Origin: Pseudoxanthomonas sp.
GTDB taxonomy: Bacteria > Pseudomonadota > Gammaproteobacteria > Xanthomonadales > Xanthomonadaceae
Direction: 5' to 3'
Assembly: GCF_051953815.1 (NCBI RefSeq)
Contig: NZ_JBQCIJ010000046.1
Span: forward strand, 172,164 to 236,163
Length of the DNA stretch: 64,000 nucleotides
The first letter of the stretch is position 1. Each line of letters begins with the position of its first letter. Made by a program: the position numbers and the translations under genes. The notes beneath the pieces were generated by a model that saw nothing but the letters and a program-made list of their open reading frames with translations, made no database searches and was not told the origin of the DNA. Below, one piece after another: positions 5,623-38,078 of the stretch.

Positions 5623-5660
5623 GGAGAACTCCTGTGTGGTTGCGGGGTGTGAGTGAAGGG

Positions 5661-7003: not shown

Positions 7004-7026
7004 GGACGTCCTTACTGAGGCTTCGC

Positions 7027-8085: not shown

Positions 8086-8151
8086 GGCGCGTTCCTTGTC
8101 ATGGCCTTTGGCCGATGGGAGAACGTTAGTTGTCCCACCTTCGTGGTCGCC

Positions 8152-8165
8152 TTGATTTGCATCAA
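8152..8165. promoter_or_regulatory. FNR/ANR box TTGATTTGCATCAA (perfect consensus)
   Basis: Exact TTGAT-N4-ATCAA. Centre ~73 nt upstream of the nirK ATG (8085) in the nirK/oprC divergent intergenic region. Confidence 0.8.
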
Positions 8166-8210
8166 TCGATGCCCTCGATTCGGCGAAAAACACCGGCAAC
8201 TTCATCCGGC

Positions 8211-8224
8211 TTGACATGGATCAA
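8211..8224. promoter_or_regulatory. FNR/ANR box TTGACATGGATCAA
   Basis: 13/14 match to the consensus. It is the second box in the same divergent region, ~104 nt upstream of the Cu-receptor ATG (8322). Confidence 0.65.
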
Positions 8225-11774: not shown

Positions 11775-13331
11775 ATGCCTTTCCACGATCTGCGCGAGTT
11801 CCTGGATCATCTGGGCGGGCAGGGTGAACTGATGGGCATCGACGCGCCGGTCGATCCCGAGCTGGAAAGCACCGCCCTGAGCCTGCGCGCCCTGCGCGAG
11901 TCCGGGCCGGCGTTGCTGATGAACAACGCCGGTTCCGCACATCCGCTGCTGGGCAACCTGTTCGGCCATCGCCGCCGCATCGAGCTGGCGCTGGATGGCC
12001 GGCCGCTGACGTCGCTGCGTGAGCTCGGCGAACTGCTTGCCTGCATCAAGGAGCCGCGCTGGCCCGGCAACCTGCGCAGCGCGCTGGCCGACTGGCCGGG
12101 GCTGGCGCAACTGGCCTACGTGGCCCCGCGCGTGGTCCAGGAAGCGGCGTTCAAAGAGCAGGTGCTGGAAGGCGAGGACGTCGATCTGGGGCGGCTGCCG
12201 ATCCAGCGCTGCTGGCCGGAGGACATCGACCGCCTGATCACCTTCGGCCTCGTGATCACCCGCGGCACCCGCCAGGAACGCCAGAACGTGGCGATCTACC
12301 GGCAGCAGGTCATCGGCCGCAACCGCGTGATCATGCGCTGGCTTCCGCATCGCGGCGGCGCGCTCGACTATGCCGGCTGGCAGGCCGCACATCCCGGCAA
12401 GCCCTTTCCGGTGCTGGTGGCGATCGGCGCGGATCCGGCCACCCTGCTGGCGGCAGTCGCGCCGGTGCCGGACACGCTGTCCGAATACGAATTCGCCGGC
12501 CTGCTGAGGGCCGCACGCACGCGGGTCTGGCGCAGCGCGCTGACCGGGCTGGACGCGCCGGCGGGCGCCGAAATCCTGCTGGAAGGCTTCATCCATCCCG
12601 GCGACACCGCGCTGGAAGGGCCGTTCGGCGATCACACCGGCTACTACAACGCGCAGGCGCATTTCCCGGTGCTCACCATCGAGCGCATGCGCCTGCGCGG
12701 CGGCGCCATCTACCACGGCAGCTACATGGGGCGGGCGCCGTTCGACGAACCCTCGGTGCTGTCGATGGCGCTGAACGACATCTTCGTGCCGATCCTGCGC
12801 AAGGTGTTCCCGGAAATCGTGGACTTCTACCTGCCGCCGGAAGCGTGCTCGTACCGGGTCGCGGTGGTCAGCATCCACAAGCAGTACGCGGGACACGCGC
12901 GCAGGGTGATGATGGGCGTCTGGTCCTACCTGCGCCAGTTCACCTACACCAAGTTCGTCATCGTCACCGACGAGGACATCGACGTGCGCGACTGGTCGCA
13001 GGTGATCTGGGCGGTGTCGACCCGGGTGGATCCGGCGCGCGACAGCCTGCTGGTGGAGAACACCCCGATCGACTATCTCGATTTCGCCACCCCGGTGTCC
13101 GGGGTCGGTTCCAAGCTCGGCCTGGACGCCACCCGCAAATGGACCGGTGAAAGCGCGCGCGAATGGGGCCGGCCGATCACCCTCGATCCGCAGGTCGAGC
13201 GGCGCGTGGACACGCTGTGGCGACAGATCCGCCGGACCGTGGAAGCCGAGTCCGCACAGGGTGCCGGACCGGAAATCCCCGATGCCCGGGCGGCGCGCCG
13301 CCGGCATTCCCCCGCCTGGAGAACCCCCTGA
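11775..13331 (+). CDS. ubiD: UbiD-family decarboxylase (4-hydroxy-3-polyprenylbenzoate decarboxylase-like)
   Basis: 518 aa. Colinear with UbiD family (MPFHDLREFLDHL..., RCWPEDIDRLITFGLVITRG, NVAIYRQQVIG.NRVIMRW, EGPFGDHTGYYN, KFVIVTDEDIDVRDW). The stop overlaps the ubiU ATG by 1 nt (TGATG). Confidence 0.85.
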   Translation: MPFHDLREFLDHLGGQGELMGIDAPVDPELESTALSLRALRESGPALLMNNAGSAHPLLGNLFGHRRRIELALDGRPLTSLRELGELLACIKEPRWPGNLRSALADWPGLAQLAYVAPRVVQEAAFKEQVLEGEDVDLGRLPIQRCWPEDIDRLITFGLVITRGTRQERQNVAIYRQQVIGRNRVIMRWLPHRGGALDYAGWQAAHPGKPFPVLVAIGADPATLLAAVAPVPDTLSEYEFAGLLRAARTRVWRSALTGLDAPAGAEILLEGFIHPGDTALEGPFGDHTGYYNAQAHFPVLTIERMRLRGGAIYHGSYMGRAPFDEPSVLSMALNDIFVPILRKVFPEIVDFYLPPEACSYRVAVVSIHKQYAGHARRVMMGVWSYLRQFTYTKFVIVTDEDIDVRDWSQVIWAVSTRVDPARDSLLVENTPIDYLDFATPVSGVGSKLGLDATRKWTGESAREWGRPITLDPQVERRVDTLWRQIRRTVEAESAQGAGPEIPDARAARRRHSPAWRTP

Positions 13332-14329
13332 TGCAACTGGTATGTCCGGCCGGCAACCTGCCGGCGCTGAAGGCCGCCATCGATGCCGGCGCCGACGCGG
13401 TCTACGCGGGCTTCCGCGACCAGACCAACGCCCGCGCGTTCCCGGGGCTGAACTTCGACGACGTGGAGATGCGCGAAGGCATCGCCTATGCGCATGCGCG
13501 CGGGCGCAAGGTGTACCTGGCGCTCAACACCTATCCGGACAGCGCGCGCCTGCCGCAATGGCGGCACGCGGTGGATCAGGCCGCCGCGTTCGGCGCCGAC
13601 GCCATCATCGCCGCCGAGATGGCGGTGCTGCACTACGCCTCGGTCCGTCATCCGGATCTGGCGCGGCACCTGTCCGTGCAGGGTTCGGCGACCACCGCGG
13701 CCGCGCTGCGCTACGCGCATGAACGCTTCGGCATCTCGCGCGCGGTGCTGCCGCGGGTGCTGTCGGTGCAGCAGGTCGAGCGGTTGTGCCAGGCCTCGCC
13801 GGTGCCGCTGGAAGTATTCGCGTTCGGCAGCCTGTGCATCATGGTCGAGGGCCGCTGCCAGTTGTCCAGCTATGTCACCGGCGCCTCGCCCAACCGGCAT
13901 GGCGTGTGTTCGCCGGCCAGTTTCGTGCGCTGGGAGGAGCATGCCGACCAGGGCCGCAGCGTGCGCCTCAACGGCATGCTCATCGATCGCTTCGGCGCGA
14001 CCGAACCGGCCGGCTATCCGACCGTGTGCAAGGGCCGCTACGATGTCGGCGGCGAAATCTTCCACGCGCTGGAGGAACCCACCAGCCTCAACACCCTGGA
14101 ATTGCTGCCGCGACTGGTCGCGGCCGGCGTGGCGGCGCTGAAGATCGAGGGCCGCCAGCGTGGCGTGGCCTACGTGCGCACGGTGACCCGGGTCTGGCGC
14201 GAAGCCATCGACGCGCAGGCGCGCGAACGCGAGGACTGGCGCATGCGCGAGGACTGGCAGGCGGATCTGTCCACGCACGCCGAAGGCCAGCAGACCACCC
14301 TTGGACCGTACCACCGCGCCTGGCATTGA
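13331..14329 (+). CDS. ubiU: U32-family O2-independent ubiquinone hydroxylase subunit UbiU
   Basis: 332 aa, near-colinear with E. coli YhbU/UbiU (MQLVCPAGNLPALKAAIDAGADAVY, PLEVFAFGSLCIMVEGRCQLSSY, GVCSPA, YPTVCKGRY, EEPTSLNTLELLP, KIEGRQR). The four Fe-S Cys are present. Confidence 0.9.
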   Translation: MQLVCPAGNLPALKAAIDAGADAVYAGFRDQTNARAFPGLNFDDVEMREGIAYAHARGRKVYLALNTYPDSARLPQWRHAVDQAAAFGADAIIAAEMAVLHYASVRHPDLARHLSVQGSATTAAALRYAHERFGISRAVLPRVLSVQQVERLCQASPVPLEVFAFGSLCIMVEGRCQLSSYVTGASPNRHGVCSPASFVRWEEHADQGRSVRLNGMLIDRFGATEPAGYPTVCKGRYDVGGEIFHALEEPTSLNTLELLPRLVAAGVAALKIEGRQRGVAYVRTVTRVWREAIDAQAREREDWRMREDWQADLSTHAEGQQTTLGPYHRAWH

Positions 14330-14332: not shown

Positions 14333-15220
14333 ATGAAACTCAGTCTTGGACCCCTGCAGTACTTCTGGCCGCGCGAGCGCGTGCTGTCTTTCTACCGGCA
14401 GGCCGCGCAATGGCCGCTGGACATCCTCTACCTGGGCGAGACCGTGTGCAGCAAGCGGCGCGAGCTGCGCACGCGCGACTGGCTGGCGCTGGCGGAGGAA
14501 CTGGCCGGCAGCGGCAAGCAGATCGTGCTGTCGTCGCTGGCCCTGATCGAAGCCGAGTCGGAACTGTCCACGGTCGTCCGGTTGGCGGAGAACGGCCGTT
14601 TCCTGCTGGAAGCCAACGATCTTTCCGCCGTGCAGGTCTGTCGCGAGCGTGGCCTGCCGTTCGTGGCCGGACCCACCCTCAACGTCTACAACCAGGTTGC
14701 CTTGGGTCTGCTGATCGAGGATGGGCTGGTGCGCTGGGTGCCCGGGGTGGAACAGGGACGCGAGCTGCTGCGGGATCTGCGCGCGGCGATGACAGAGCAG
14801 GGCACGCCCATGCCCGAGCTGGAAGTGCTGGCCTGGGGGCGACTGCCGCTGGCGTATTCGGCGCGCTGTTTCACCGCGCGCGCCTATGACGTGTCCAAGG
14901 ACGACTGCGGTTTCCGCTGCATCGAGCACCCCGGCGGCCTGCCGCTGGCCACCCGCGAGGGCGAGCCCTTCATGGTCATCAACGGCGTGCAGGTGCAGGG
15001 CATGGAAGTCGTCGATCTGGCGCCGGAACGCGACGAGCTGATCGCCTGTGGCGTGGACATCCTGCGGTTGTCGCCGGTGCAGGACGACATGGCGGACATG
15101 GTCGATCACTTCCGGCGCATGCTGGATGCGCCGCTGCCACCGCCGCGCCTGGGCGCGCGCAACGGCTACTGGCACGGCAAGCCGGGGCGGGCGTCGCTGG
15201 CCGCGCCCATGATCGGATGA
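14333..15220 (+). CDS. ubiV: U32-family O2-independent ubiquinone hydroxylase subunit UbiV
   Basis: 295 aa. YhbV/UbiV-like N-terminus [15 protein letters not shown]...[12 protein letters not shown] and C-terminal Cys cluster [20 protein letters not shown]. It starts 3 nt after ubiU. Confidence 0.85.
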
Positions 15221-15280: not shown

Positions 15281-15364
15281 ATTCAACGCGCCCCAACTCG
15301 ACGCATCCAGTTCAACGCATCCGCTTCAACGCATCGCGTTCAGCGCGCCGGATTCACTCCGCTG
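15281..15364. repeat. six phased 14-bp tandem direct repeats (consensus nnTTCAACGCATCC)
   Basis: Units: attcaacgcgcccc / aactcgacgcatcc / agttcaacgcatcc / gcttcaacgcatcg / cgttcagcgcgccg / gattcactccgctg. They lie in exact 14-nt register and fill the convergent gap between the ubiV stop (15220) and the nadB stop (15354). Confidence 0.7.
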
Positions 15365-16805
15365 GCGCGTCACTTCGATAGTGCGCGCCGAGGCTGCGCG
15401 TGCGCGCCAGCGCCGCCCGCAGCAGGCGGCCCACCAGTTGGCCCTGCCAGCTGCCACCGATGGAGGCATCCCGGGCAAGTTCGTCCAGCGCTTCACGCAT
15501 CAGAGCGCCTTCGCGCACCGGGCCCAGCGCACGCCAGGCGAGCGCCCGCAGGCCGATCAGCGCTGCGGCGTCCGCTTCACGGCCCCGTTCGACCCAGTGC
15601 CCGCCGCCCTCCGGCACATGCCGGCGCAGGCTGCCCAGATGCTGGCCGAGGCGGCGGCCGTAGACCACGCCCTCGAGCAGCGAATTGCTGGCCAGCCGGT
15701 TGGCCCCGTGCACGCCGTTGCAGGCGGTTTCGCCCACCGCATACAGCCCTTCCACCGAGGTGCGGCCATCGAGATCGACAGCGATGCCACCCATGTGGAA
15801 ATGCGCGGCCGGCGTGACCGGAATCCGCTGGACGCGCGGATCGATGCCGTGCGCTCGGCACAGCGCGTACACGGTGGGGAACTGCAGCAGCCAGGTTTCG
15901 TGCAGGTGGGTGGCGTCCAGCCAGATGCGCCGTCCGTCCTGCTGCGCCAGCCACACCTGGCGCGCGACGACGTCACGCGGCGCGAGATCGCCCAGCGGAT
16001 GTTGCCCGGTCATGATCGCCGCGCCGTCGTCGTCGAACAGGCGCGCACCCGCGCCGCGCAGCGCTTCGGTGATCAGCGGCAGGGCGCCATGGACGGCCAC
16101 CGACAGCGCGGTGGGATGGAACTGGACGAACTCCAGGTCCCGCGCCTGCGCGCCCGCCGCGAGCGCCAGCGCCAGGCCGTTGCCGTCGGCGCCGGAAGGA
16201 TTGGTGCTGGCGGCGAACAGCGCGCCGCAGCCGCCGGTGGCCAACACCACCTCGGCGCAGTCGATCTCCTCGGGGCGCGCGTCCGCCTGCCGGCGCAGGC
16301 GCAGGCCGCTGACGCCGTGATCGCCGACGCGCAGCGCGTCCAGCATCGCCGGCGGCCGCCAGTCGATGTGCGGGGCGTTCTGCGCCGCCCGGATCAGCGC
16401 CAGCAGCAGCGACGCGCCGCTGGCATCGCCACCGGCATGGACGATGCGGTGACGACGGTGGCCGCCTTCGCGGCCGAGCAGGAAGCGGGTGCCTTCCAGG
16501 TCGAATGGTACGCCCTGCGCCTGCAGCCAGCGCACCGCCATCACCGCGTTGTCGACCAGATAGCGGACCGCGTCGTAGTCGTTGTGATCGGCGCCGGCGG
16601 CGAGGGTGTCGTGCGCGTGCGCGTCGGGGCTGTCGCCGCTGTCCAGGGCGGCGGCGATGCCACCCTGCGCCAGCGCGGTGCAGCAGTCGATGCCGGCGGG
16701 CGCGCGTCCGATCAGCAGCACCCTGCGCGGCGCGGCCGACAGCGCCGTGGCCAGGCCGGCGACGCCGCAGCCCACCACCACCAGCGGCGGCACGCCGGTG
16801 CTCAC
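15354..16805 (-). CDS. nadB: L-aspartate oxidase NadB
   Basis: 483 aa. GTG start overlapping the nadA stop (GTGA). FAD-binding VVVGCGVAGLATAL, QGGIAAAL, HPTAL, HFHMGGI and GLYAVGETACNGVHGANRLASNSLLE. The 840-aa track ORF is this gene plus out-of-frame read-through. Confidence 0.9.
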   Translation of the reverse strand: MSTGVPPLVVVGCGVAGLATALSAAPRRVLLIGRAPAGIDCCTALAQGGIAAALDSGDSPDAHAHDTLAAGADHNDYDAVRYLVDNAVMAVRWLQAQGVPFDLEGTRFLLGREGGHRRHRIVHAGGDASGASLLLALIRAAQNAPHIDWRPPAMLDALRVGDHGVSGLRLRRQADARPEEIDCAEVVLATGGCGALFAASTNPSGADGNGLALALAAGAQARDLEFVQFHPTALSVAVHGALPLITEALRGAGARLFDDDGAAIMTGQHPLGDLAPRDVVARQVWLAQQDGRRIWLDATHLHETWLLQFPTVYALCRAHGIDPRVQRIPVTPAAHFHMGGIAVDLDGRTSVEGLYAVGETACNGVHGANRLASNSLLEGVVYGRRLGQHLGSLRRHVPEGGGHWVERGREADAAALIGLRALAWRALGPVREGALMREALDELARDASIGGSWQGQLVGRLLRAALARTRSLGAHYRSDAPAE

Positions 16806-17818
16806 GCGCGTTCGCCCCGGCCCACGGCGAGCATGCGTTCCAGCGCGGCGCGCGCGCGTCCGGCCACGTCGGCGGGCACTTCGACCGGATGGCGCAGGTC
16901 GCGCAGGCAGGCGTGGATGTTCGGCAGGGTGATCCGCTTCATGTGCGGGCACAGGTTGCAGGGCTTGATGAAGTCCACGTCCGGGAAGCGATGGCGCAGG
17001 TTGTCGGCCATCGAGCATTCGGTGATCAGGGCCACGCGGCGTGGGCGCTCGCGCTCCAGCCAGGCGCCCATGGCGGTGGTGGAACCGACGAAGTCGGCTT
17101 CGCGCTGCACTTCCGGTGGACATTCCGGATGCGCGAGCAGGCGCGCGCCGAAGGTCTCGCGGGTGTGGCGCGCCTGTTGCGCGGTGAATTGTTCGTGCAC
17201 CTCGCAGCGGCCATCCCACAACACCAGTTCGACCCCGGTCCGGGCGGCGACATGGTGGCCAAGGAAGGCATCGGGCAGGAAGATCACCTTGTCGGCGTTC
17301 ATCGCCTCGACCACCCGCACCGCGTTGGCCGAGGTGCAGCAGGCATCGGATTCGGCCTTCACCGCCGCGCTGGTGTTGACGTAGCTGACCACCGGCGCGC
17401 CGGGATGGCGCGCACGCAGCGCGCGCACGTCGTCGGCGGTGATGGAGGACGCCAGCGAACAACCGGCTTCGGGATCCGGAATCAGCACCGTGCGCCGCGG
17501 CGCCAGGAGCTTCGCGGTCTCGGCCATGAAGTGGACGCCGCACAGCACGATGATGTCGGCGTCGCAGTCCGCCGCCGCCTGCGCCAGCGCCAGCGAATCG
17601 CCGGTGACGTCGGCCACCCCGTGGAAGATCTCCGGCGACTGGTAGCTGTGCGCCATGATCACCGCGCCGCGTTCGCGCTTGAGCGCCTGGATGGCGTCGA
17701 TCCATGGCAGGTGCAGCGGCCATTCCAGGCACGGCACGGTGTCGCCGACGCGCGCGGTCAGATCCGCGTAGCGCGTTTCCAGATCCGGCGTCCAGCGCGG
17801 TTGGAAGATGGCGCTCAT
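16802..17818 (-). CDS. nadA: quinolinate synthase NadA
   Basis: 338 aa with NadA blocks (VIMAHSYQSPEI, CGVHFMAETAK, CSLA, VSYVNTSAAVKA, CTSANA, HPECPPEV, STT.M, ECSM). The ATG overlaps the ubiT stop (ATGA 17815-17818). Confidence 0.9.
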   Translation of the reverse strand: MSAIFQPRWTPDLETRYADLTARVGDTVPCLEWPLHLPWIDAIQALKRERGAVIMAHSYQSPEIFHGVADVTGDSLALAQAAADCDADIIVLCGVHFMAETAKLLAPRRTVLIPDPEAGCSLASSITADDVRALRARHPGAPVVSYVNTSAAVKAESDACCTSANAVRVVEAMNADKVIFLPDAFLGHHVAARTGVELVLWDGRCEVHEQFTAQQARHTRETFGARLLAHPECPPEVQREADFVGSTTAMGAWLERERPRRVALITECSMADNLRHRFPDVDFIKPCNLCPHMKRITLPNIHACLRDLRHPVEVPADVAGRARAALERMLAVGRGERA

Positions 17819-18693
17819 GCGACCTCGCCGTGATGGACGCGGTAGGCGTGGCGTGCGTCGCGGGCCACGCGGGCACCGCGCTGGAGCAGGATGCGCGAAC
17901 CCAATGGGAAGGATTCCCACGGCAGCCGGTCCAGCAGGTTGCGCACGGTCAGCCCCAGCTCGGTGTCGCCGGTCAACATCAGCCGGCGCTGGAAGAACAG
18001 CGTATCGGCGTCCTCCAGCCGGCTGGCGAGCAGCAGCAGATCGGTCGCGCTGCCGCTGACGGTGGCCTCGGCGACGCCATCCGCCAGGCGCAGGCCATCG
18101 GCCTCCATCACCAGCACCCAGCGCAGATCGAGATCGCGCACGTCGATGCCGAGCCGGCGGCCGTTGATGGAATCCAGGATCCGCCGCACCTGCGGTGTGG
18201 CGAGGGCTGGTGCGAGCAACCGCAGCAGGAGCCGTTCGCGCATGGAGCGCGGCACGCGTGACAACCAGGGACGCAGCCGTCGCGGCGGCGGAAGCCAGCG
18301 GAGCAGGGAGGAAGTGGAGGAGTCGCCGCGCGATGACGACGTGCCGGTGGTTGCCATGGGAGGGAACGGCTCGGAAGTGAAGGTGGAAGGACGTGCCTGC
18401 CAGCGATGGGCCTCGGCGATCAGCAAGCGCATCAACCGTTCGGCGCTGGCGGGCGGAATGCCGCTGCGTCGCGCCAGCCGGCAGGCGCGTTGATGGACCT
18501 GTTGTTCGCGGAGCGGATCGGTCTGCGCCATGCCGGCGTGGCGCTTGAGCCGACCCGCCAGCCCGGCCAGCCGCTGGCGCCCGCCCAGCAGGATGATCAT
18601 GGCGTCGTCGACCCGATCGATCGCCGCCCGGGTGCCATCCAGGGCCATCCGGCTCAGCACGGGACGACGCCCGCGACGGGGCAATAGCGGCAA
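17815..18693 (-). CDS. ubiT: AroQ (chorismate-mutase type II)-like domain fused to SCP2-domain ubiquinone accessory factor UbiT
   Basis: 292 aa (alternative ATG at 18648). The N-terminal ~85 aa match the CM_2 pattern (TRAAIDRVDDAMIILLGGRQRLAGLAGRLKRH...DPLREQQV...LMRLLIAEAHRWQ). The C-terminal ~170 aa are colinear with E. coli YhbT/UbiT (IDVRDLDLRWV; SATDLLLLASRLEDADTLFFQRRLMLTGDTELGLTVRNLLD). Confidence 0.8.
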   Translation of the reverse strand: MPLLPRRGRRPVLSRMALDGTRAAIDRVDDAMIILLGGRQRLAGLAGRLKRHAGMAQTDPLREQQVHQRACRLARRSGIPPASAERLMRLLIAEAHRWQARPSTFTSEPFPPMATTGTSSSRGDSSTSSLLRWLPPPRRLRPWLSRVPRSMRERLLLRLLAPALATPQVRRILDSINGRRLGIDVRDLDLRWVLVMEADGLRLADGVAEATVSGSATDLLLLASRLEDADTLFFQRRLMLTGDTELGLTVRNLLDRLPWESFPLGSRILLQRGARVARDARHAYRVHHGEVA

Positions 18694-18788: not shown

Positions 18789-18802
18789 TTGACCCAGATC
18801 AA
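18789..18802. promoter_or_regulatory. FNR/ANR box TTGACCCAGATCAA
   Basis: 13/14 match to the consensus, ~100 nt upstream of the ubiT ATG (18693). The stop codon of the upstream membrane-protein gene (18799-18801) is embedded in the right half-site. Confidence 0.65.
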
Positions 18803-20055
18803 GTGGAGCGATCCGTTTCCCGGGGACGGAAGCGCAGCGCGTCGCGCCAACAGGCCAGCACCGCCGCGCCGCTCGCGGTCCAGGCCAGGGCAAGCGCGGC
18901 GCCCGCGACGCGGGTAAAGGTGGGTTGCCAGATGGCCAGCAACAGCAGGCCGGCCGATGCCAGATGGGCGCGCAGCAGCCACTGCTTGCGCTTATCGTCC
19001 AGCAGGCGATCCACGCCGGGGACGCGCACGCCGCGCGGATGTCGACGGCGCAGTTCGATCCAGGCCAGGAAGCCGACGATTTCCAGCAGCATGCCCAGCA
19101 CCAGCAGTGGCAGGCCGATGGCGATCACCAGCGCGCCGAGCGCGAGCAGTCCGCGCGGGGACAGGGCCGGGGCGAGACCGAGCAGGCAGGCGAAGGCGAG
19201 GGCCACGCAGCCGGCCTGCCAGAAACGCCGCAGCACCGGGTTGCGCCGGTGCGGCGCGCGCGCCTGCAGAACCAGCACGGCGATGCAGAACACCAGCCCG
19301 GGCAACGCCAACGCACGCGCCGGAAGGCCGGATGGATCGGACAGCGCCGCGCCACCGGTCCAGGCGAGCGCCAGCAGCAGCGTGCACAGCCACGCCAGCA
19401 GCAAGGGGGCGGGAATCCGCCGCGTCCCCTGCAACATCGGCATGGTGATGCTGGCCACCGCGCCCAGCAGCGCGAGCGCCCAGCCCGCCAGTCCGAGCGC
19501 GGCATGCAGATTGGCGATGCGGTCCAGCGGCAGCGCCCACAGCCCGGACAGCGCGGCCAGCAGCGCCAGCCCCAGCGCGATGGTGACCAGCAGCGACGCC
19601 AATGCGATGCCGATACCCAGGCGCGGCGCGCGCGGGCCGCTTCCCCGCATCACCGCGATCAATCCGCTGACGGCGAACAGGGCCAGCGGCGGCGCCAGCA
19701 ACACCGACGAAGCGCCGGCGAGCGCACGTGACGGAAAAACCAGCGATGACAGCAACAGCAGCAACCCGGCGTTGAGCGCGACGTGCAGCCAGTTCGCCTG
19801 GCGCGGCAGCGACAACGGACATCCGGCGGCCACCGGCAGGAACTGGAACAGGCTGCCGATCATCGCGTTGCCCAGCACGCCGAGGGTGAACAGGTGCGCC
19901 AACACCAGCGTGTGCGGCGCCCAGCGCGTCAGCAGCGCGGTTTCGCCGGTCCACAGCAGCCACAGTCCGGCGCCGGCGCCCCAGGCCAGCGAGGACAGCA
20001 GGAAACGCAGCGGTTGGCCGGGAGGCGGCGCCTGGGCGAACGCCAGCCCGCTCAT
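18799..20055 (-). CDS. 12-TM integral membrane protein, possibly NnrS-related
   Basis: 418 aa from MSGLAFAQ. The ATG overlaps the DUF2249 stop (ATGA). It is highly hydrophobic with two repeated halves, each carrying a His/Gly motif (HTLVLAHLFTLGVLGNAMIGSLFQFLP; NLHAALGLAGWALALLGAVASITMPMLQG) reminiscent of NnrS. The functional call is weak. Confidence 0.55.
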   Translation of the reverse strand: MSGLAFAQAPPPGQPLRFLLSSLAWGAGAGLWLLWTGETALLTRWAPHTLVLAHLFTLGVLGNAMIGSLFQFLPVAAGCPLSLPRQANWLHVALNAGLLLLLSSLVFPSRALAGASSVLLAPPLALFAVSGLIAVMRGSGPRAPRLGIGIALASLLVTIALGLALLAALSGLWALPLDRIANLHAALGLAGWALALLGAVASITMPMLQGTRRIPAPLLLAWLCTLLLALAWTGGAALSDPSGLPARALALPGLVFCIAVLVLQARAPHRRNPVLRRFWQAGCVALAFACLLGLAPALSPRGLLALGALVIAIGLPLLVLGMLLEIVGFLAWIELRRRHPRGVRVPGVDRLLDDKRKQWLLRAHLASAGLLLLAIWQPTFTRVAGAALALAWTASGAAVLACWRDALRFRPRETDRST

Positions 20056-20306
20056 GCGATCCGCGGCGGTTCCAGCGCGGCGTGATCGTCGCCGTGGCAG
20101 ATGGCGATGCAGGCGTCGCCGGCGGGCAACTCGTGCACGCGATAGGCGTAGCCCCAGGCATCGAGCAGGGACATCAGCGGCAGCGGACGGAACGGCGTGA
20201 ACGCGACCAGTCGCCCGCCGCGCGGCAGGGTTTCCAGGCTGGCGAGGATCCGCTGCATCGGTTCCGGCGGCGCGAGTCCGCGCAGATCGAGTCGGGTCAG
20301 AAGCAT
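20052..20306 (-). CDS. DUF2249-like (TusA-fold) small protein
   Basis: 84 aa, MLLTRLDLRGLAPPEPMQRILASLETLPRGGRLVAFTPFRPLPLMSLLDAWGYAY, typical of DUF2249 proteins found in NO-responsive clusters. SD GAGGA 7 nt upstream. Confidence 0.7.
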   Translation of the reverse strand: MLLTRLDLRGLAPPEPMQRILASLETLPRGGRLVAFTPFRPLPLMSLLDAWGYAYRVHELPAGDACIAICHGDDHAALEPPRIA

Positions 20307-20437
20307 GGCGCGTCCTCATTCTTGGAGCCGTCCTCGCCGGCGGGGCAGTCCAACCTCGCGCCCGCGGCGTCGAAGGATTCGCGTATCCAGCCCGCGCAGG
20401 GCGAGCAGGGATCCGGTGGCAGCAACGCTTCGTTCAT
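20297..20437 (-). CDS. unlisted 46-aa four-Cys ORF (MNEALLPPDPCSPCAGWIRESFDAAGARLDCPAGEDGSKNEDAPCF)
   Basis: It fills the sirB2-DUF2249 gap exactly. The ATG lies 4 nt after the sirB2 stop, and the 3' end overlaps the DUF2249 start by 10 nt. Third-codon positions are mostly G/C. It has a CxxC plus two further Cys. It was extracted from a longer shadow ORF (20297-20590). Confidence 0.35.
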   Translation of the reverse strand: MNEALLPPDPCSPCAGWIRESFDAAGARLDCPAGEDGSKNEDAPCF

Positions 20438-20441
20438 GGCA

Positions 20442-20840
20442 CTACCCCAGCAGGGCCAGCAGGCCCATCGGATGGTGGGCGCGCGCGATGCCGTAGACCT
20501 GCAGGAAGCACAGCAGCGCGGCGGCGTACAGCGCGACGCGGGACAGCCTTGCGCGCGCCGGCTGGAAGGCGAGCACGCCCAGCACGACATAGGCGAGGAT
20601 GAAACCGACCTTCACGATCAGCCAGCCATTGGCGAACACGCCGGCGGGCAGGATCGTCAGCAGCATCATCGCGGCGGTCAGCAACACGGTGTCGACGGTG
20701 TAGCTGAGGTAGCGCAACGGCGCGACCCGCGGCCAGCGCATGCCCAGCGACAACCCCAGTCCGCGCAGCGCGAACAGCGTGCCGCTGGTGAGCGCGGCGC
20801 CGATGTGGACCAGCTTGATGTCGGGATAGAAGGTGATCAC
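20442..20840 (-). CDS. SirB2-family membrane protein
   Basis: 132 aa with 4 TM segments (MITFYPDIKLVHIGAALTSGTLFALRG..., LSYTVDTVLLTAA, NGWLIVKVGFILAYVVLG), the SirB2-family pattern. It starts 5 nt after the nnrS stop. Confidence 0.7.
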   Translation of the reverse strand: MITFYPDIKLVHIGAALTSGTLFALRGLGLSLGMRWPRVAPLRYLSYTVDTVLLTAAMMLLTILPAGVFANGWLIVKVGFILAYVVLGVLAFQPARARLSRVALYAAALLCFLQVYGIARAHHPMGLLALLG

Positions 20841-20844
20841 GGCG

Positions 20845-22044
20845 TCAGCCCGGTCGCCCGTCGGCGCGCGGACTCAGGTAGATGCGCCCGATGCGGGTCA
20901 CCCACGGCAGCAGCGCGATCAACCAGCCCGCCGCCGAGGCGACCTGCCAGAACAGCGCGTCCGGCGCGATCTCCGCGACCACCCGCATCACCGCGACGAT
21001 CTGCAACGCGGTGAACGCGAACCAGGCCAGTGCGTGCATCTTCAGCGGCCGCCCGGAATGGCCCTGGGTCACCCGGGTGACCATCGCCACCAGCACGCTG
21101 CCGAAGAATCCGATGAACATCGCATGCATCGGCGCGCGTCCGAGCACGAACTCCCCGGTGAGCAGGTAGATGACGCTCTGCGCGGTGTACAGCGCGAAGG
21201 TGGTGGGCAGCCACGCGGTACCGATGAAGAGCACTGCCAGCAGGCCCGGCATGCGTCCGCGCGGCCACCAGTGCCACAGCGCCACGCCGCTGGCGATCAG
21301 CAGCGCCGCGTCCGGCAGCCACAGCCAGGGGTAGGCATGCCGCAGTTCAAGCACCAGGTGCAGCAGCAGGAAGCCCCACATCGCCCCCAGCCACGCCATC
21401 GGCCGCCACGGCTTGTAGCCGGGCACCACGTTGGCGGCGAAGAACGGAAACATGCGGTGAGCGACCGTCAGGTAGATCGGCAGCAGCATCGCCACGCCGC
21501 CGAGCTTGATGCTGGCGAACGCGTACCACGCGTCGCCGGTCAGCACGAACACCTGGAAGCACGCCAGCCCGGCGCAACCCAGCAGCAGCGCGGCGAAGCA
21601 GGAACGCGCGTGCCAGGTGCGCGCGGTATCGCGCAGCAGCAACCGGCCCAGCGTGGCGACCCCGGCCAGCCAGCCGGCCAGCGCCATCCACAGGCCGACC
21701 GTGAAACCGGCTTCCCAGCCCAGCGTGGACAGCAGGATCGCCAACTGCCCGCCCATCAGCCCGGCGCCGACCGGCGCATACCGCCAGCGCGGCAGATCCG
21801 GCAGGCCCATCCAGCGCGGAAACACGGTGAGCAGGAAACCGAAGATGAAACTCGGCAGCACCAGGTACTGCATCAGGAACGCATGCAGCCAGCCCGGCGG
21901 CACCGCCGTATCCGGCATCCGCCAGCCGCCGCTGTACTGCGACGCCAGCCACGCCGCCCACCACAGCATCGCCAGCAGCACGTTGCCGGCGCCGATGAAG
22001 AACATCAGCCGATGCGGCGCCTGCAACAACTGGCGCGCGGACAT
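20845..22044 (-). CDS. nnrS: NnrS-family haem/copper membrane protein
   Basis: About 399 aa from MSARQLLQAPHRLMFFIGAG (the ORF extends to 22101). NnrS-type N-terminus and multi-TM body with conserved His (HAFLMQY, HRMFPFF, HAMFIGFFGS). The FNR box position favours the 22044 start. Confidence 0.85.
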   Translation of the reverse strand: MSARQLLQAPHRLMFFIGAGNVLLAMLWWAAWLASQYSGGWRMPDTAVPPGWLHAFLMQYLVLPSFIFGFLLTVFPRWMGLPDLPRWRYAPVGAGLMGGQLAILLSTLGWEAGFTVGLWMALAGWLAGVATLGRLLLRDTARTWHARSCFAALLLGCAGLACFQVFVLTGDAWYAFASIKLGGVAMLLPIYLTVAHRMFPFFAANVVPGYKPWRPMAWLGAMWGFLLLHLVLELRHAYPWLWLPDAALLIASGVALWHWWPRGRMPGLLAVLFIGTAWLPTTFALYTAQSVIYLLTGEFVLGRAPMHAMFIGFFGSVLVAMVTRVTQGHSGRPLKMHALAWFAFTALQIVAVMRVVAEIAPDALFWQVASAAGWLIALLPWVTRIGRIYLSPRADGRPG

Positions 22045-22135
22045 GCCGGCGGAAGGACCGGCGGGCGTCGGAGGATGGTTGGAAACGGGAATCGGTCGCA
22101 TGACCGCAGTCTGCGCCGCGGTGTCGGGACCTTCC

Positions 22136-22149
22136 TTGACCTGGATCAG
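22136..22149. promoter_or_regulatory. FNR/ANR box TTGACCTGGATCAG
   Basis: 12/14 match to the consensus. Centre 98 nt upstream of ATG 22044, and only 41 nt from the alternative ATG at 22101. Confidence 0.6.
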
Positions 22150-22211
22150 GCCGAATGCGGATCAACGCCGGTGGATCCGCACCGGCACCGTTCCGCCGAT
22201 GAAGTACGGCA

Positions 22212-22594
22212 CCGTCATCCCGGCTAACGCGGGGACCCATGTTGACGTTCGGCCAGCGCTCGCGGGAGCTCAGGATCCCAATAGATTCCAGCCTGCGCTG
22301 GAATGACGACGGGAACGATGGAATGGGAAAGGGAGTCCCGACGCCGTCGTCCCAGCGCACGCGGGGACCCATGTTGACCTCCGGCCAGCATTCGCGGCAG
22401 CCCGGAATCCCGATGGATTCCTGCTTGCGCTGGAATGACGTTGGGAAGGACGTTGGGAAGGACGACAGGAACGATGGAGTGGGAAAGGAACCCCGACACC
22501 GTCGTCCCAGCGCACGCGGGGACCCATGTTGACCTCCGGCCAGCATTCGCGGCAGCCCGGAATCCCGATGGATTCCTGCTTGCACTGAAGCGAC
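22212..22594. repeat. tandem array (about 3 units) of a REP/MITE-like palindromic element
   Basis: Units at 22212-22308, 22344-22440 and 22499-22594, with periods of ~132 and 155 bp. Units 2 and 3 are near-identical over ~85 bp (ccgtcgtcccagcgcacgcggggacccatgttgacctccggccagcattcgcggcagcccggaatcccgatggattcctgcttgc). Each unit has two short hairpins (GTCCCAGCG/CGCGGGGAC and ATTCCTGC/GCTGGAAT). An internal 12-bp duplication, ttgggaaggacg x2, lies at 22441-22464. Confidence 0.85.
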
Positions 22595-22729
22595 GTTGGG
22601 ATGGATGTGGACTTGGGAAGCCCGTGGACTGGGGATGGATCCCGGATGTCCAGGGGAAGCGGTCGCGACCCACGTCGCTCCTACGGAGTTGACGAAGGGG
22701 GCGGGGAGCGTCGCAAGAGGCGATCCGGC

Positions 22730-22743
22730 TTGATGCGGGTCAA
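22730..22743. promoter_or_regulatory. FNR/Dnr-type box TTGATGCGGGTCAA
   Basis: Left half is perfect; the right half is GTCAA, the same variant as the qNor box. Centre ~85 nt upstream of the ATG at 22821. Confidence 0.6.
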
Positions 22744-22820
22744 TGCCAGGTGCCATGGGCCTGCGTACGTTTGCCGGCACCGGGGCGCTCGCCCCGGCCC
22801 ACACTCAGCAAGGAAACCGC

Positions 22821-23072
22821 ATGTCCGCTCCCGAACACACCGACGAACCGCTCCAGCAACGCACCCGTGCCATGACCCACGCCCTGCGCGAATGGGATCC
22901 CGACGCGGAGGTCCAGTTCGAATCCGCCAGCGGGCGCCTGGCGATCCTCACCACGCTTTCGCCCGAGCGCGTGCGCGAGATCCTGTCCACGGTCGGCGAA
23001 CAGGTCGAGGATGTGCCGGAAGACGCCCGTCGGAGCGGCTGCGGTTGCGGGGGCTGCGGCTGCTCGAACTGA
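22821..23072 (+). CDS. small HMA-fold-like protein with C-terminal Cys-Gly tail (SGCGCGGCGCSN); paralog of 4832-5071
   Basis: 83 aa. SD AAGGAAA upstream. It aligns with the 4832-5071 product (L.E.DP...V......G.L.I.T.......I....G..V ... C.GGC). It is monocistronic, sitting between an FNR-type box and a strong terminator. Confidence 0.65.
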   Translation: MSAPEHTDEPLQQRTRAMTHALREWDPDAEVQFESASGRLAILTTLSPERVREILSTVGEQVEDVPEDARRSGCGCGGCGCSN

Positions 23073-23115
23073 GAGGTTGGAACGCCGCCGCCTTGTCGGA
23101 TTGCAACGATAAGCC

Positions 23116-23144
23116 AAAAAAGAGCCGCTTTCGCGGCTCTTTTT
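23116..23144. terminator. bidirectional rho-independent terminator
   Basis: aaaaa-AGAGCCGC-tttc-GCGGCTCT-tttt: a perfect 8-bp GC-rich stem flanked by an A-run and a T-run. It lies between the convergent Cys-tail gene (+) and qNor (-). Confidence 0.85.
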
Positions 23145-23169
23145 CATTGCGCTTGAAAACCGCCGTGAG

Positions 23170-25443
23170 TCAGCCCTCCGCCGGCACCGCCGCCGGCAGC
23201 GCTTCCCGGCGCGGCGCCACCCATAGCCGGAACACGAACCAGGCCAGGGCGAACGCGCCGACGCTGAACAGCGTGTCCGACGGCACCCGCATCCACACCA
23301 GCATGTCCACGACCGGCTGCTGCATGAACTCGGCCGAGCGGGCGTACCAGTAACCGTGCTTGAGCGCGGCGTTGAGCTGCATGATGCCCAGTGGCAGCAG
23401 GGTGAACAGGGCCATGCCGGCCAGACCGATGTTGAGCGACCAGAACGCGGTCCTCAGCAGCTTCTCGTTCCACACCACGTCCGGCTTGAGGCCGCGCAGG
23501 CAGAACAGCATCAGGCCGATGCCGAGCATGCCGTACACACCGAACAGCGCGGTGTGGCCGTGGGTCGGGGTCAGGTTCAGGCCCTGCATGTAGTACAGCG
23601 GCAGCGGCGGATTGATCAGGAAGCCGAACAGGCCGGCGCCGACGAGGTTCCAGAACGCGACCGCGATGAAGAACAGGATCGGCCAGCGATAACGCTGCAT
23701 CCACGGCGTGGCCTTGCCCATCCGGTAGCTGTGGTACGCCTCGAAGCCGACGTAGGCCAGCGGCACCACTTCCAGCGCGGAGAAACTGGCGCCGATGGCG
23801 ATGACCGCGGTCGGGGTGCCGGTGAAGTACAGGTGGTGCAGGGTGCCCAGCACGCCGCCGGCCATGAACACGATGGTCGCGAACAGCACCGCCATCGTGG
23901 CGGACTTGACCTGCAGCAGGCCCAGGCGAGTGAACAGGAAGGCGATGACCGCCACCGCGAAGACCTCGAAGAAGCCTTCCACCCACAGGTGCACGACCCA
24001 CCAGCGCCAGTACTCGACCATCGACAGGTGCGTGTGCTCGCCCCACATCAGGCCGGCCGCGTAGAACAGGCCGATGGCCACGGTGGACAGGAACAGCAGC
24101 GACACGATGGAGCGCGAATCGCCGCCGTTGCGCATCGCCGGCCACAGGGCACGGCCGACCAGCACCAGCCACAGGGTCAGGCCGATGAACAGGAACCACT
24201 GCCAGAAACGGCCCAGGTCGACGTATTCCCAGCCCTGGTGACCGAACCAGAAGTTGTGCTTCAGACCGAGCTTCTGCATCACCGCGAACCACTGTCCGGC
24301 GAACGCGCCGACCACGATGATCAACAGGCAGACCCACAGGAAGTTCACGCCAAGGCGTTGGAATTTCGGTTCGTGCCCGGAAATCGCCGGGCCGATGTAC
24401 AGGCCCATGCCCAGCCACGCGGTGGCGATCCACAGCACCGCCAGCTGGGTGTGCCAGGTACGGGTCAGCGAATACGGCAACACGTCGGCCAGGGCGAAAC
24501 CGTAGGCTTCCTGGCCTTCAACCTGGTAATGCGCGGTGATCGCGCCGAGCAGGATCTGCACCAGGAACAGCGCGATGACCACCCAGAAATACTTGGCCGT
24601 GGCGCGCATCGACGGGGTGACCTTGATGTCGGCCAGCGGATCCCGCTTGGGCAGCACGTGCGCCAGTTCGTCGCCATGGTTGACCGCGTAGTGCCAGCCG
24701 AGCAGGGCGACACCGGCGATCAGGAACAGCACGCTGAACACCGTCCACAGGAACGCGCTGGGCGGTGGCGTGTTGCCGACCAGTTCGTCGGCCGGCCAGT
24801 TGGCGGTGTAGGTGATCTCCGCGCCGGGGCGCAGGGTCACCGACGACCAGGCGGCCCACCAGTAGAAACCGGTGAGCTGGCGGCGGTGGCCGGCATCGGG
24901 CACGGTGTCGTTGCGCATGGCGTAGGCCTCGCGCAGCTTGACCATCGCCGGGTCCTTGCCGAACAACTGCTCGTAGTGCGCGGCGACGGTGCGGATGGCC
25001 GCGGCGCGATCGGCATCGACCGTCACCGTGCCGGTGGCGGCGTCGTAGGTGTTCGGACGCATCAGCGCCTGCACGCGCTTGGCGTAGGCGGCCTGGGTCG
25101 GGGCGTCCAGCTCCTTGTAGCCGGCGACGCCGGCTTCGCGCCTGGCCCAGATGTCGAGGATGGCCTCGGCTTCGCGATGCAGCCAGTCCGCGCCCCAGTC
25201 GGGAGCGACGTAACCGCCGTGGCCCCAGATGGAGCCCAGCTGCTGGCCGCCGATGGACTGCCAGACCTGGCGGCCGGTCTCGATGTCCTGGCGGGTGTAG
25301 AGAACCTGGCCATCGGCATCGACCACCTGTTCGGGCAGGGGCGGCGCCTGTCGGTGGACTTCGCTGCCGACCCAGAGTAGGACGGCGAACGAGGCGATGA
25401 GCAGGGCGGCCAACCCTGCCCACAGCTTGCGTGTGGAATTCAT
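23170..25443 (-). CDS. norB: quinol-dependent nitric oxide reductase (qNor, single-subunit NorB/NorZ)
   Basis: 757 aa. N-terminal TM plus cytochrome-c-like extension (QDIETGRQVWQSIGGQQLGSIWGHGGYVAPDW), followed by a 12-TM haem-copper-oxidase-type body with conserved His (HLWVEGFFEVF, GTLHHLYF, HGHTALFGVYG). Confidence 0.95.
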   Translation of the reverse strand: MNSTRKLWAGLAALLIASFAVLLWVGSEVHRQAPPLPEQVVDADGQVLYTRQDIETGRQVWQSIGGQQLGSIWGHGGYVAPDWGADWLHREAEAILDIWARREAGVAGYKELDAPTQAAYAKRVQALMRPNTYDAATGTVTVDADRAAAIRTVAAHYEQLFGKDPAMVKLREAYAMRNDTVPDAGHRRQLTGFYWWAAWSSVTLRPGAEITYTANWPADELVGNTPPPSAFLWTVFSVLFLIAGVALLGWHYAVNHGDELAHVLPKRDPLADIKVTPSMRATAKYFWVVIALFLVQILLGAITAHYQVEGQEAYGFALADVLPYSLTRTWHTQLAVLWIATAWLGMGLYIGPAISGHEPKFQRLGVNFLWVCLLIIVVGAFAGQWFAVMQKLGLKHNFWFGHQGWEYVDLGRFWQWFLFIGLTLWLVLVGRALWPAMRNGGDSRSIVSLLFLSTVAIGLFYAAGLMWGEHTHLSMVEYWRWWVVHLWVEGFFEVFAVAVIAFLFTRLGLLQVKSATMAVLFATIVFMAGGVLGTLHHLYFTGTPTAVIAIGASFSALEVVPLAYVGFEAYHSYRMGKATPWMQRYRWPILFFIAVAFWNLVGAGLFGFLINPPLPLYYMQGLNLTPTHGHTALFGVYGMLGIGLMLFCLRGLKPDVVWNEKLLRTAFWSLNIGLAGMALFTLLPLGIMQLNAALKHGYWYARSAEFMQQPVVDMLVWMRVPSDTLFSVGAFALAWFVFRLWVAPRREALPAAVPAEG

Positions 25444-25499
25444 GATGCGGGACTCCGTGGGAACCACAGGCATGTTCCGCCCGCGTCCGGATCCCCTCC

Positions 25500-25513
25500 A
25501 TGACCTACGTCAA
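25500..25513. promoter_or_regulatory. FNR/Dnr-type box ATGACCTACGTCAA
   Basis: TGAC-N6-GTCA palindrome matching the consensus at 11/14 positions. Centre 63 nt upstream of the qNor ATG (25443). Confidence 0.55.
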
Positions 25514-25576
25514 GCCGATGTCATTCGCGTGCGGACGGCGCGCGTCGCGGGGATCAATGCCCGGATGCGCCGGGTA

Positions 25577-26332
25577 TCAGTCGCGCAGTACCATGGACGC
25601 CAGTTCGTGCAGGCGATCCAGGTCGAGGATCTCGACGTCGCGCTGCTTGATGCGGACCAGTCCGTCGCGCTCGAACCGGCGAAGCACCCGGCTCACCGTT
25701 TCCGGCGCCTGGCGCAGGTAATTGGCGATATCGGTGCGCGACATGGTCAGCTGGAAGCGGCGCGAGGAATAACCGCGCGCGGCCAGCCGCCGCGACAGGC
25801 CGATGAGAAACGCGGCCATGCGCTCGTCGGCGCTGTTGTCGCGGGCGAACAGCGAGGCCACGCCGATGTCATGGCTCATCAGCCGGAACAGGTGCTGCTG
25901 CAGGTTGGGCAGGCGGGTGGCGAGCAGGGCGATCTTGGGAAACGAGAACCGGCAGAGCATCACCGTGTCCAGCGCCACCGCGTTGCAGGGATAGCGATCG
26001 CCGTGGATGGCGTTGAGGCCGATCACCTCGCCGGGCAGGTGGAAGCCCAGGACCTGCTCGTGGCCATCGCGATCCACTTGGTAGGTCTTGACCGTGCCGG
26101 CGCGTACCGCGGCGATGGCGCTGAAACTGTCGCCTTCGCGGAATACGTGTTCGCCCGGTTGCAGCGGGCCGACATGCTCCACCAGGACATGCAGATCCAT
26201 CAGCGCGCGCTTGTCCATGCCCTCGCTGAGGCAGGCCTGGGAGAACGCGCAGGTGGAACAGAACGTCAGCGAATCGCCGTCGTCGGAGAGGATGGTGGCG
26301 TCGGTGCGTGGGAAAACGACCGGCGAGCTCAT
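25577..26332 (-). CDS. fnr: FNR/ANR-type oxygen-sensing Crp-family transcription regulator
   Basis: 251 aa. N-terminal C-X2-C-X5-C (FCSTCAFSQAC) plus an internal Cys (VMLCRFSF), as in the E. coli FNR [4Fe-4S] ligands. cNMP-like domain. HTH with the E--SR recognition helix (ETVSRVLRRF). It starts 19 nt after the hemN stop. Confidence 0.9.
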   Translation of the reverse strand: MSSPVVFPRTDATILSDDGDSLTFCSTCAFSQACLSEGMDKRALMDLHVLVEHVGPLQPGEHVFREGDSFSAIAAVRAGTVKTYQVDRDGHEQVLGFHLPGEVIGLNAIHGDRYPCNAVALDTVMLCRFSFPKIALLATRLPNLQQHLFRLMSHDIGVASLFARDNSADERMAAFLIGLSRRLAARGYSSRRFQLTMSRTDIANYLRQAPETVSRVLRRFERDGLVRIKQRDVEILDLDRLHELASMVLRD

Positions 26333-26351
26333 GCGGACGCCCCGGATGAGG

Positions 26352-27752: not shown

Positions 27753-27786
27753 GGAACAAGGCTAGACAGGGGCGGGCCCCGCCGCC

Positions 27787-27800
27787 TTGACCTGAATCAA
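27787..27800. promoter_or_regulatory. FNR/ANR box TTGACCTGAATCAA
   Basis: 13/14 match to the consensus, in the hemN/moeA divergent region. The centre lies exactly 41.5 nt from the A of the hemN ATG (27752). Confidence 0.7.
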
Positions 27801-27922
27801 CCGTCGGCCAGTTGGCCGGAACCCTTCAGCTATGTGAGGATGCGGCGTCCTTGCCCGCGGATGATGCCGGTGGTGTCGCCGGGAACGGGTATACGGACAC
27901 GGCAATCTTCCAGGGAGCAGGC

Positions 27923-29182: not shown

Positions 29183-29192
29183 GCCGCGCGGC

Positions 29193-29750: not shown

Positions 29751-29830
29751 CCACTGACACGTTCGGGCGCGAAAGTTTGTGCTAGGCTCGCTGCGCAGTT
29801 CGCCCAGCCATCAACCGCCAGGTGAGCCTC

Positions 29831-29998: not shown

Positions 29999-30001
29999 GC
30001 G

Positions 30002-33341: not shown

Positions 33342-33351
33342 GAGATTCGCC

Positions 33352-33936: not shown

Positions 33937-33939
33937 GCC

Positions 33940-38009: not shown

Positions 38010-38078
38010 GTCCGTCCCCCGGCGCGGCGGGCGGCGCCGGCGGCGGCTTTCACCGTGCGTAGCCATCGGGCCGGGACA

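Follow-up and report, generated by a model that had tools for sequence, protein, structure and literature searches.

A gene on the reverse strand of a 64,000-nt stretch of Pseudoxanthomonas sp. DNA (contig NZ_JBQCIJ010000046.1, positions 172,164 to 236,163, hereafter the window) encodes a protein in which an N-terminal chorismate mutase (CM) domain of the AroQ type, a disordered linker and a C-terminal UbiT domain follow one another in a single reading frame. We conclude that this AroQ-UbiT fusion is a real single protein and that its CM domain, judging by an active site conserved among its homologues, is apparently an active chorismate mutase. UbiT is an SCP2 accessory factor needed for ubiquinone synthesis without oxygen only (PMC6747719; 2026 preprint), and prephenate is the oxygen donor for the hydroxylations carried out by UbiU/UbiV in that pathway (Kazemzadeh Ferizhendi et al., PNAS 2024, PMC10990095). 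We suggest that the fused CM domain probably makes prephenate on site for the UbiU/UbiV steps.

Architecture of the CM-UbiT fusion

The gene and its parts are as follows; residue numbers of the fusion count from ATG 18648, while Pfam spans refer to the longest reading of 292 amino acids (aa).

17815..18648 (-): CM-UbiT fusion gene, 277 aa from ATG 18648 (open reading frame (ORF) list, Pfam, NCBIfam)
18391..18642 (-): AroQ (CM_2) chorismate mutase domain, residues 3-86 (Pfam CM_2, profile alignment, superposition)
18307..18390 (-): flexible linker rich in Ala, Pro, Ser and Thr, residues 87-114
17818..18306 (-): UbiT domain, residues 115-277 (NCBIfam UbiT, Pfam SCP2, Foldseek)

The gene ends with a TGA stop codon at 17815-17817. 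The longest ORF (17815..18693) starts at TTG 18693 and a further alternative start, GTG 18660, gives 281 aa, all of these codons having been checked directly. The 277-aa product from ATG 18648 is 100% identical to a database protein (P0001), and the closest relatives begin with MLSRMAL, matching the GTG 18660 reading, so that the true start is probably one of these two. With every candidate start the whole CM domain is retained. The G+C content at third codon positions (GC3) is 0.83 over the whole ORF, which fits a coding region in a window of 69% GC.

An AlphaFold2 model of the fusion (built on 24 homologues, mean predicted local distance difference test score (pLDDT) 84.7) consists of three helices, a disordered segment at residues 91-108 with pLDDT < 50, and an alpha/beta SCP2 domain. 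The only Pfam matches at E <= 1 are CM_2, SCP2 and a weak, sub-threshold match to MDMPI_C (15.6 bits against a cut-off of 29.5).

The initial annotation of this region had proposed that the C-terminal part is UbiT and that the N-terminal ~85 aa are a type II chorismate mutase, and both assignments are borne out. The C-terminal part scores 114.7 bits against the NCBIfam UbiT equivalog NF047962 (cut-off 46.9), matches Pfam SCP2 over residues 166-255 (E=1.8e-15) and carries the motifs LLRxLPPP and EDADTLFFQRRL..GDTELGL; the model of this domain finds UbiJ-SCP2 (6h6p) as its best Foldseek match (E=2e-6), such that equivalog score and SCP2 fold agree on its membership of the UbiT family. At the N-terminus, Pfam CM_2 (PF01817) matches residues 22-99 with E=7.4e-14 and 52.2 bits (gathering score 27). 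The predicted helices of this domain (residues 2-38, 45-62 and 66-85, pLDDT 84-95) form the three-helix AroQ fold, which superimposes on the CM of Escherichia coli PheA (EcCM, 1ecm_A) with a root-mean-square deviation of 0.8 A over 84 columns and on 3rmi with 1.3 A.

Conservation of the CM active site

Conservation was assessed in a set of at least 120 listed homologous proteins with 49-100% identity to the window protein. A profile of this fusion family aligns to EcCM residues 8-89 without gaps at an offset of +4 (E=1.5e-12), at a sequence identity between CM domain and EcCM of ~25%. The equivalences R7=R11, R24=R28, K35=K39, D44=D48, R47=R51, E48=E52, A80=S84 and Q84=Q88 (fusion residue first) follow from it, and the by-eye alignment of the initial annotation, including the replacement of Ser84 by Ala, proved correct at each of these positions. 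The corresponding codons, checked directly, are listed below.

18628-30, 18577-79, 18544-46 and 18517-19 (-): catalytic codons R7, R24, K35 and D44, respectively
18508-10, 18505-07, 18409-11 and 18397-99 (-): catalytic codons R47, E48, A80 and Q84, respectively

The EcCM-type catalytic residue set (Arg11', Arg28, Lys39, Asp48, Arg51, Glu52 and Gln88) is thus complete in the window protein. Across the family, the equivalents of EcCM R11, R28, K39, R51, E52 and Q88 are found in 120/120 homologues and that of D48 in 119/120. The full list of invariant CM-domain residues comprises R7, D14, R24, K35, R47, E48, R54, A80 and Q84; at I10, D11, D15 and D44 the residue is shared by 119 homologues, and at L20 and V51 by 118. 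Mean pairwise identity is 52% for the CM domain, 67% for UbiT and just 19% for the linker, and the invariance of the catalytic set against such a divergent linker indicates that selection acts on the active site.

Distribution and origin of the fusion

Both Pfam domains, CM_2 included, are present in 120/120 listed homologues. A scan of one genome per species returned at least 569 relatives, and the best 80 of these, which were examined, align from query residues 1-9 (two of them from residue 29) into UbiT in one frame. The search for the CM_2 plus SCP2 architecture that the initial annotation had called for therefore finds the fusion in every protein of both sets. All named carriers among them are Lysobacterales, belonging to the families Lysobacteraceae and Rhodanobacteraceae: Pseudoxanthomonas, Stenotrophomonas nitritireducens, Xanthomonas chitinilytica, Thermomonas, Arenimonas, Lysobacter, Luteimonas, Dyella, Frateuria, Rhodanobacter, Rudaea, Dokdonella and Chiayiivirga. 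The window itself most resembles Pseudoxanthomonas beigongshangi (84% identity of the fusion protein, full synteny), and the most divergent named representatives are labelled Rhodanobacteraceae, Ahniella or 'Lysobacterales bacterium'. Pairwise identities of the CM half and of the UbiT half are correlated (r=0.77), and this points to a single ancient fusion that would then have been inherited as a unit.

One locus stands apart by its label. A metagenome-assembled genome named 'Patescibacteria group bacterium' (L023, DATMVT010000066.1) carries CM-ubiT, nadA and nadB at 49% identity; because of the sequence similarity and the nadA-nadB synteny, the label is probably a binning or contamination error.

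When the CM-domain profile was compared with 1.84 billion representative proteins, at least 25 of the best 150 matches were full-length CM-UbiT proteins and a few more were fragments of such proteins, and matches of odd length were DAHPS-CM, PDT-ACT-CM, CM-PDH or tandem CMs. The nearest stand-alone CM that was examined (P0163) lies on a 1-kb contig and is followed by a gene with no UbiT match.

A proposed role in prephenate supply

The case for prephenate as oxygen donor was made by E. coli genetics and isotope labelling: a pheA tyrA double mutant contains no ubiquinone when grown anaerobically, and supplying just the CM domain of PheA is enough to bring it back (PMC10990095). As of 2024, neither UbiU/UbiV nor any other U32 hydroxylase could be assayed in vitro (PMC10990095). 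Set against this background, the fusion unites in one chain a co-substrate-forming enzyme and the presumed presenter of the lipid substrate. This is a link that the initial annotation missed, as prephenate was named there as a possible regulator only. Its more general idea, the coupling of a chorismate-utilising step to the anaerobic ubiquinone machinery, holds insofar as a conserved CM site is physically tied to UbiT; its specific suggestion of a lyase as that step does not hold, as discussed below.

We propose the following sequence of events. AroQ domains are obligate intertwined dimers (PMC12329711), and the CM domain would form a homodimer of this kind like EcCM, with Arg11' contributed by the partner chain. 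Given its intact active site, it would convert chorismate to prephenate. The flexible linker, with 30-49 residues separating Q84 from P120 across homologues, may allow the CM dimer to reach two UbiT domains. UbiT would associate physically with UbiU/UbiV, and these would use the locally made prephenate at three molecules per ubiquinone, a supply independent of the chorismate mutase of the Phe/Tyr pathway. Housekeeping PheA (CM_2-PDT-ACT) is reported to be widely distributed in Xanthomonadaceae (PMC5700972), and the fused CM is for this reason probably an extra, dedicated copy beside it. It is speculative that such a dedicated enzyme keeps up the supply of oxygen atoms when the housekeeping CM is down-regulated.

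A more specific version of this proposal, which we regard as tentative and rather doubtful, is that the CM-UbiT dimer forms the core of an anaerobic Ubi complex, pairing two UbiT domains loaded with lipid, docking UbiU/UbiV and handing freshly made prephenate over to them directly. If this were true, the oxygen-atom supply would be insulated from Phe/Tyr feedback control, and the fusion would provide what has been lacking to reconstitute a prephenate-dependent U32 hydroxylase in vitro for the first time.

Several observations weigh against a role of the CM domain as prephenate source. Its activity is deduced from sequence. The position of EcCM Ser84, which contacts a ligand carboxylate, is occupied by Ala in 120/120 homologues, and this replacement may have lowered activity or changed specificity. 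All NCBIfam CM equivalog models match the domain below their cut-offs (the best, PRK09239, with 53.9 bits against 120), on which ground we class the CM domain of the fusion as a distinct subfamily by profile score. No CM fused to a U32 domain was found among the 150 closest CM representatives. Further to that, UbiT is a separate protein in E. coli and Pseudomonas aeruginosa, which use the same pathway, so the chemistry can do without the tether. As regards Ser84, the structure 3rmi has Val at this position, and in a 2025 directed-evolution study of the P. aeruginosa isochorismate-pyruvate lyase PchB, variants evolved for higher CM activity carried Ser, Ala, Cys or Gly there (PMC12329711); since all four residues were selected, the Ser84 residue is probably dispensable.

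Alternative explanations

The best-surviving alternative, to which we give a small chance, is that the CM-like domain binds chorismate or prephenate with no need for turnover, acting as a sensor, a prephenate-delivery module or a scaffold for UbiT dimerisation. There is a precedent in the CM-like domain of the Bacillus subtilis DAHP synthase, the role of which is largely regulatory. The obligate dimerisation of AroQ domains (PMC12329711) implies that the fusion would dimerise UbiT, and both the uniform loss of Ser84 and the failure to reach any CM equivalog cut-off would be accommodated. Against this, eight active-site positions, Lys39, Glu52 and Gln88 among them, are essentially unchanged in 120 proteins diverging to 49% identity, and the conserved residues are those that stabilise the transition state; a site kept so intact would be expected to be catalytic.

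Somewhat less probable, and in our view unlikely, is that the domain is a general chorismate mutase for Phe and Tyr synthesis, its fusion to UbiT being a historical accident with no functional coupling. The gene following P0163 resembles prephenate dehydrogenase (by eye, from its translation), which suggests descent from an ordinary aromatic-pathway CM. However, two families have retained the fusion, and it lies beside ubiU, ubiV and ubiD in an anaerobic island rather than with aro, phe or tyr genes; the reported wide distribution in Xanthomonadaceae of a PheA with its own CM domain (PMC5700972) likewise speaks against it, and for a facultative aerobe it would be strange to place a housekeeping enzyme behind a putative FNR-type box.

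Very improbable is the reading favoured by the initial annotation, in which the domain catalyses another pericyclic or elimination reaction, either of chorismate to 4-hydroxybenzoate (4-HB) and pyruvate or as an isochorismate-pyruvate lyase, to supply the ubiquinone ring. The AroQ fold does support the PchB lyase, and traces of lyase activity are known from some genuine CMs (PMC12329711). The invariant Ser84 to Ala change is a departure from EcCM, and ubiC and xanB2, as well as pheA and ubiX, were not found among the ~45 ORFs scanned or inspected in the 64-kb window.

The active site of the fusion is nonetheless of the mutase type. Seven active-site positions differ between PchB and EcCM, the first five of them being P, A, V, W and Y in PchB and R, D, E, D and S in EcCM (PMC12329711). 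At the positions of PchB Pro50, Ala51 and Val55 the fusion family has Arg in 83/120, Asp in 119/120 and Glu in 120/120 members, and at those of Trp86 and Tyr87 it has Asp or Glu in 99/120 and Ala in 120/120. Lyase-type residues are therefore replaced by CM-type ones, including Asp48, the partner of Arg11', and Glu52, a CM hallmark that contacts the chorismate 4-hydroxyl (PMC12329711), and a small residue stands where PchB has its Tyr. Profile scores agree, with 52.5 bits for 3rmi, 50.7 for 1ecm and 50.1 for 1ybz against 25.3 bits for PchB, which places the fusion closer to CMs than to the lyase. No homology to UbiC (Chor_lyase) or to the XanB2 fold was found in the fusion at Pfam E <= 1, the domain being all-helical AroQ, and the window genes that were scanned include none for salicylate or siderophores. 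The reaction from chorismate to 4-HB belongs to UbiC and XanB2, and we know of no AroQ enzyme that performs it. XanB2 is the source of 4-HB in X. campestris, which belongs to the same order. Moreover, 4-HB is needed both with and without oxygen, while UbiT works without oxygen only. On the basis of the active-site signature and the scores we rejected a 4-HB-forming lyase as the identity of the domain.

A final set of observations concerns the linker and the reality of the joint. A Met in the linker (residue 98 of the window protein) is present in 118/120 homologues, usually 17-22 residues before LLRxLPPP and often inside a short hydrophobic M/I-M/I-A-P-x-M motif. This residue may be a relic of an ancestral ubiT start, an internal start or a docking motif. 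Shine-Dalgarno-like pairing before it is not enriched in 72 loci (-1.7 against -2.5 kcal/mol in the control), and its use as a second start yielding free UbiT is unsupported. That the fusion itself is a frameshift or assembly artefact, or that translation truly starts downstream of the CM part, both of which the initial annotation had raised as possible objections, can be put aside despite this Met: one frame spans both domains in 81 independent loci and at least 120 protein clusters, GC3 over the whole ORF is that of a coding region, and strong selection acts on the CM active site, such that the comparative data exclude a sequencing artefact.

Relation to known systems

The UbiT proteins of E. 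coli and P. aeruginosa (YhbT; Pelosi et al. 2019, PMC6747719) share with the fusion the UbiT equivalog match over its C-terminal 160 residues, the SCP2 fold, a location next to ubiU/ubiV and an upstream FNR-type box. E. coli UbiT, however, is a 174-aa protein with SCP2 only (PMC6747719), to which the fusion adds an 86-residue CM domain and the linker, and the fusion gene is predicted to be co-transcribed with nadA/nadB instead of being placed beside ubiUV. EcCM (AroQ-alpha) resembles the CM domain in its three-helix fold, its gapless alignment and the residues R11, R28, K39, D48, R51, E52 and Q88; the differences are Ala for Ser84 and a lipid-binding partner in place of prephenate dehydratase. 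PchB (2h9c/2h9d) is a distant homologue with the same fold, at 25 bits, from which the fusion is set apart by Asp, Glu and Ala in place of the lyase-specific Ala51, Val55 and Tyr87.

As to architecture, PheA (CM-PDT-ACT), TyrA (CM-PDH) and CM-DAHP synthase likewise carry a small AroQ domain on a partner that depends on prephenate or feeds the pathway. Here, by contrast, the AroQ domain sits on an accessory protein for making quinones, and prephenate would be used by separate polypeptides, UbiU and UbiV. The closest parallel on the UbiT side is the UbiT-UbiU fusion of Zymomonas mobilis, in which UbiT is also tied to a component of anaerobic hydroxylation; it is found in two genomes, was taken as evidence of a shared function, and is the sole fusion reported in the discovery paper of 2019 (PMC6747719). 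The difference is that UbiT is joined to a hydroxylase subunit there, and to an enzyme making the co-substrate here, across Lysobacterales.

Our search of the accessible literature found no paper linking UbiT or SCP2 with chorismate mutase, and the words 'UbiT' and 'fusion' are both absent from the 2024 study of prephenate (PMC10990095). The belief of the initial annotation that the fusion was undescribed thus apparently stands for the literature and fails for the databases, where the architecture is already annotated: in JGI it goes under the name 'predicted lipid carrier protein YhbT/chorismate mutase', and NCBI names such proteins 'UbiT' or 'SCP2 domain-containing', and sometimes 'chorismate mutase' alone. 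CM-UbiT is therefore annotated but apparently as yet undescribed, and the single-domain names at NCBI amount to a systematic annotation gap.

The occurrence of this fusion in a denitrifying order would provide independent evolutionary support for the link between prephenate and anaerobic ubiquinone, and its rationale has become coherent and testable since the prephenate result of 2024. It suggests that UbiT acts at the site of hydroxylation, beyond ferrying lipids, and that prephenate supply is limiting enough for anaerobic ubiquinone to favour a dedicated enzyme. It may also serve as a compact natural construct for reconstituting prephenate-dependent hydroxylation.

Genomic neighbourhood

Gene neighbours were counted within 8 kb of the fusion in 81 related loci. 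Two groups of genes adjoin CM-ubiT in the window.

16802..17818 (-): nadA, quinolinate synthase (Pfam NadA, E=1.6e-108)
15354..16805 (-): nadB, L-aspartate oxidase (best NCBIfam models L-aspartate oxidase, all just below cut-off; PRK07512 501 bits against 528)
14333..15220 (+): ubiV, partner U32-family subunit (NCBIfam UbiV, 349.6 bits against 275)
13331..14329 (+): ubiU, U32-family subunit of O2-independent ubiquinone hydroxylation (NCBIfam UbiU, 531.6 bits against 440)
11775..13331 (+): ubiD-family decarboxylase (Pfam UbiD_N, UbiD and UbiD_C)

The nadA ATG overlaps the CM-ubiT TGA (ATGA) and the nadB GTG overlaps the nadA TGA (GTGA), by 4 nt each, and on this arrangement CM-ubiT, nadA and nadB are predicted to be one translationally coupled operon. 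The association recurs, with nadA directly downstream of the fusion in 51/81 loci and nadB in 49/81. We know of no reason for tying NAD synthesis to anaerobic ubiquinone synthesis. As pure speculation, the connection could lie in the need of L-aspartate oxidase for an electron acceptor other than oxygen.

Of the genes on the opposite strand, ubiU is found near the fusion in 67/81 loci and ubiV in 68/81, and several of the loci without them sit on truncated contigs; the co-occurrence with ubiU and ubiV that is expected of a UbiT is thus present. The ubiD-family product passes an NCBIfam UbiD-family subfamily model (457.7 against 244.85), and its best match is the 4-hydroxy-3-polyprenylbenzoate decarboxylase equivalog, below the cut-off (693.3 against 788). 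The gene lies near the fusion in 49/81 loci, and in the window its stop overlaps the ubiU start (TGATG). By this layout ubiD, ubiU and ubiV form a second predicted operon, convergent with CM-ubiT-nadA-nadB. The presence of ubiD beside ubiU/ubiV fits a 2026 preprint in which UbiX/UbiD are essential for O2-independent ubiquinone synthesis and X. campestris lacks both, and the island as a whole looks like a self-contained anaerobic ubiquinone cassette.

Two further features bear on the regulation of the fusion gene.

18789..18802 (-): putative FNR/Anr-type box TTGATctggGTCAA, its centre 147 nt upstream of ATG 18648
25577..26449 (-): Fnr-like regulator (204 bits against a subfamily cut-off of 228), adjoining hemN

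An FNR-type box with at most one mismatch occurs at -125 to -163 in 13/81 loci, mostly those of the nearest relatives, at a background of 0.033 per 300 nt. The gene for the Fnr-like regulator lies 7 kb from the candidate box, and both are surrounded by a denitrification island that occupies 5164..8217 and 20052..34539 of the window. It contains azurin, a nirV-like gene, nirK, DUF2249, SirB, NnrS and quinol-type NorB (qNorB), together with hemN, moeA, mobA, napF/D-like ORFs, napA, napB and napC, and P. beigongshangi shares the gene order from hemN to nirK. Because of this island and the putative FNR-type box, the fusion gene is probably switched on when oxygen runs out.

Between DUF2249 and CM-ubiT lies a gene for a hydrophobic, probably membrane-embedded protein of 420 aa (18799..20061, (-)), which has no Pfam or NCBIfam match and is encoded upstream of the fusion in 42/81 loci. 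This protein may be an uncharacterised factor connected with nitric oxide or denitrification, or else with the making of ubiquinone under anaerobic conditions.

The window also encodes, close behind the nap genes and a PAS/GAF hybrid histidine kinase, a 578-aa protein of the ABC1/UbiB family (38055..39791, (+)), scoring 315 bits against a UbiB equivalog cut-off of 488, which may be a second, anaerobiosis-linked UbiB paralogue.

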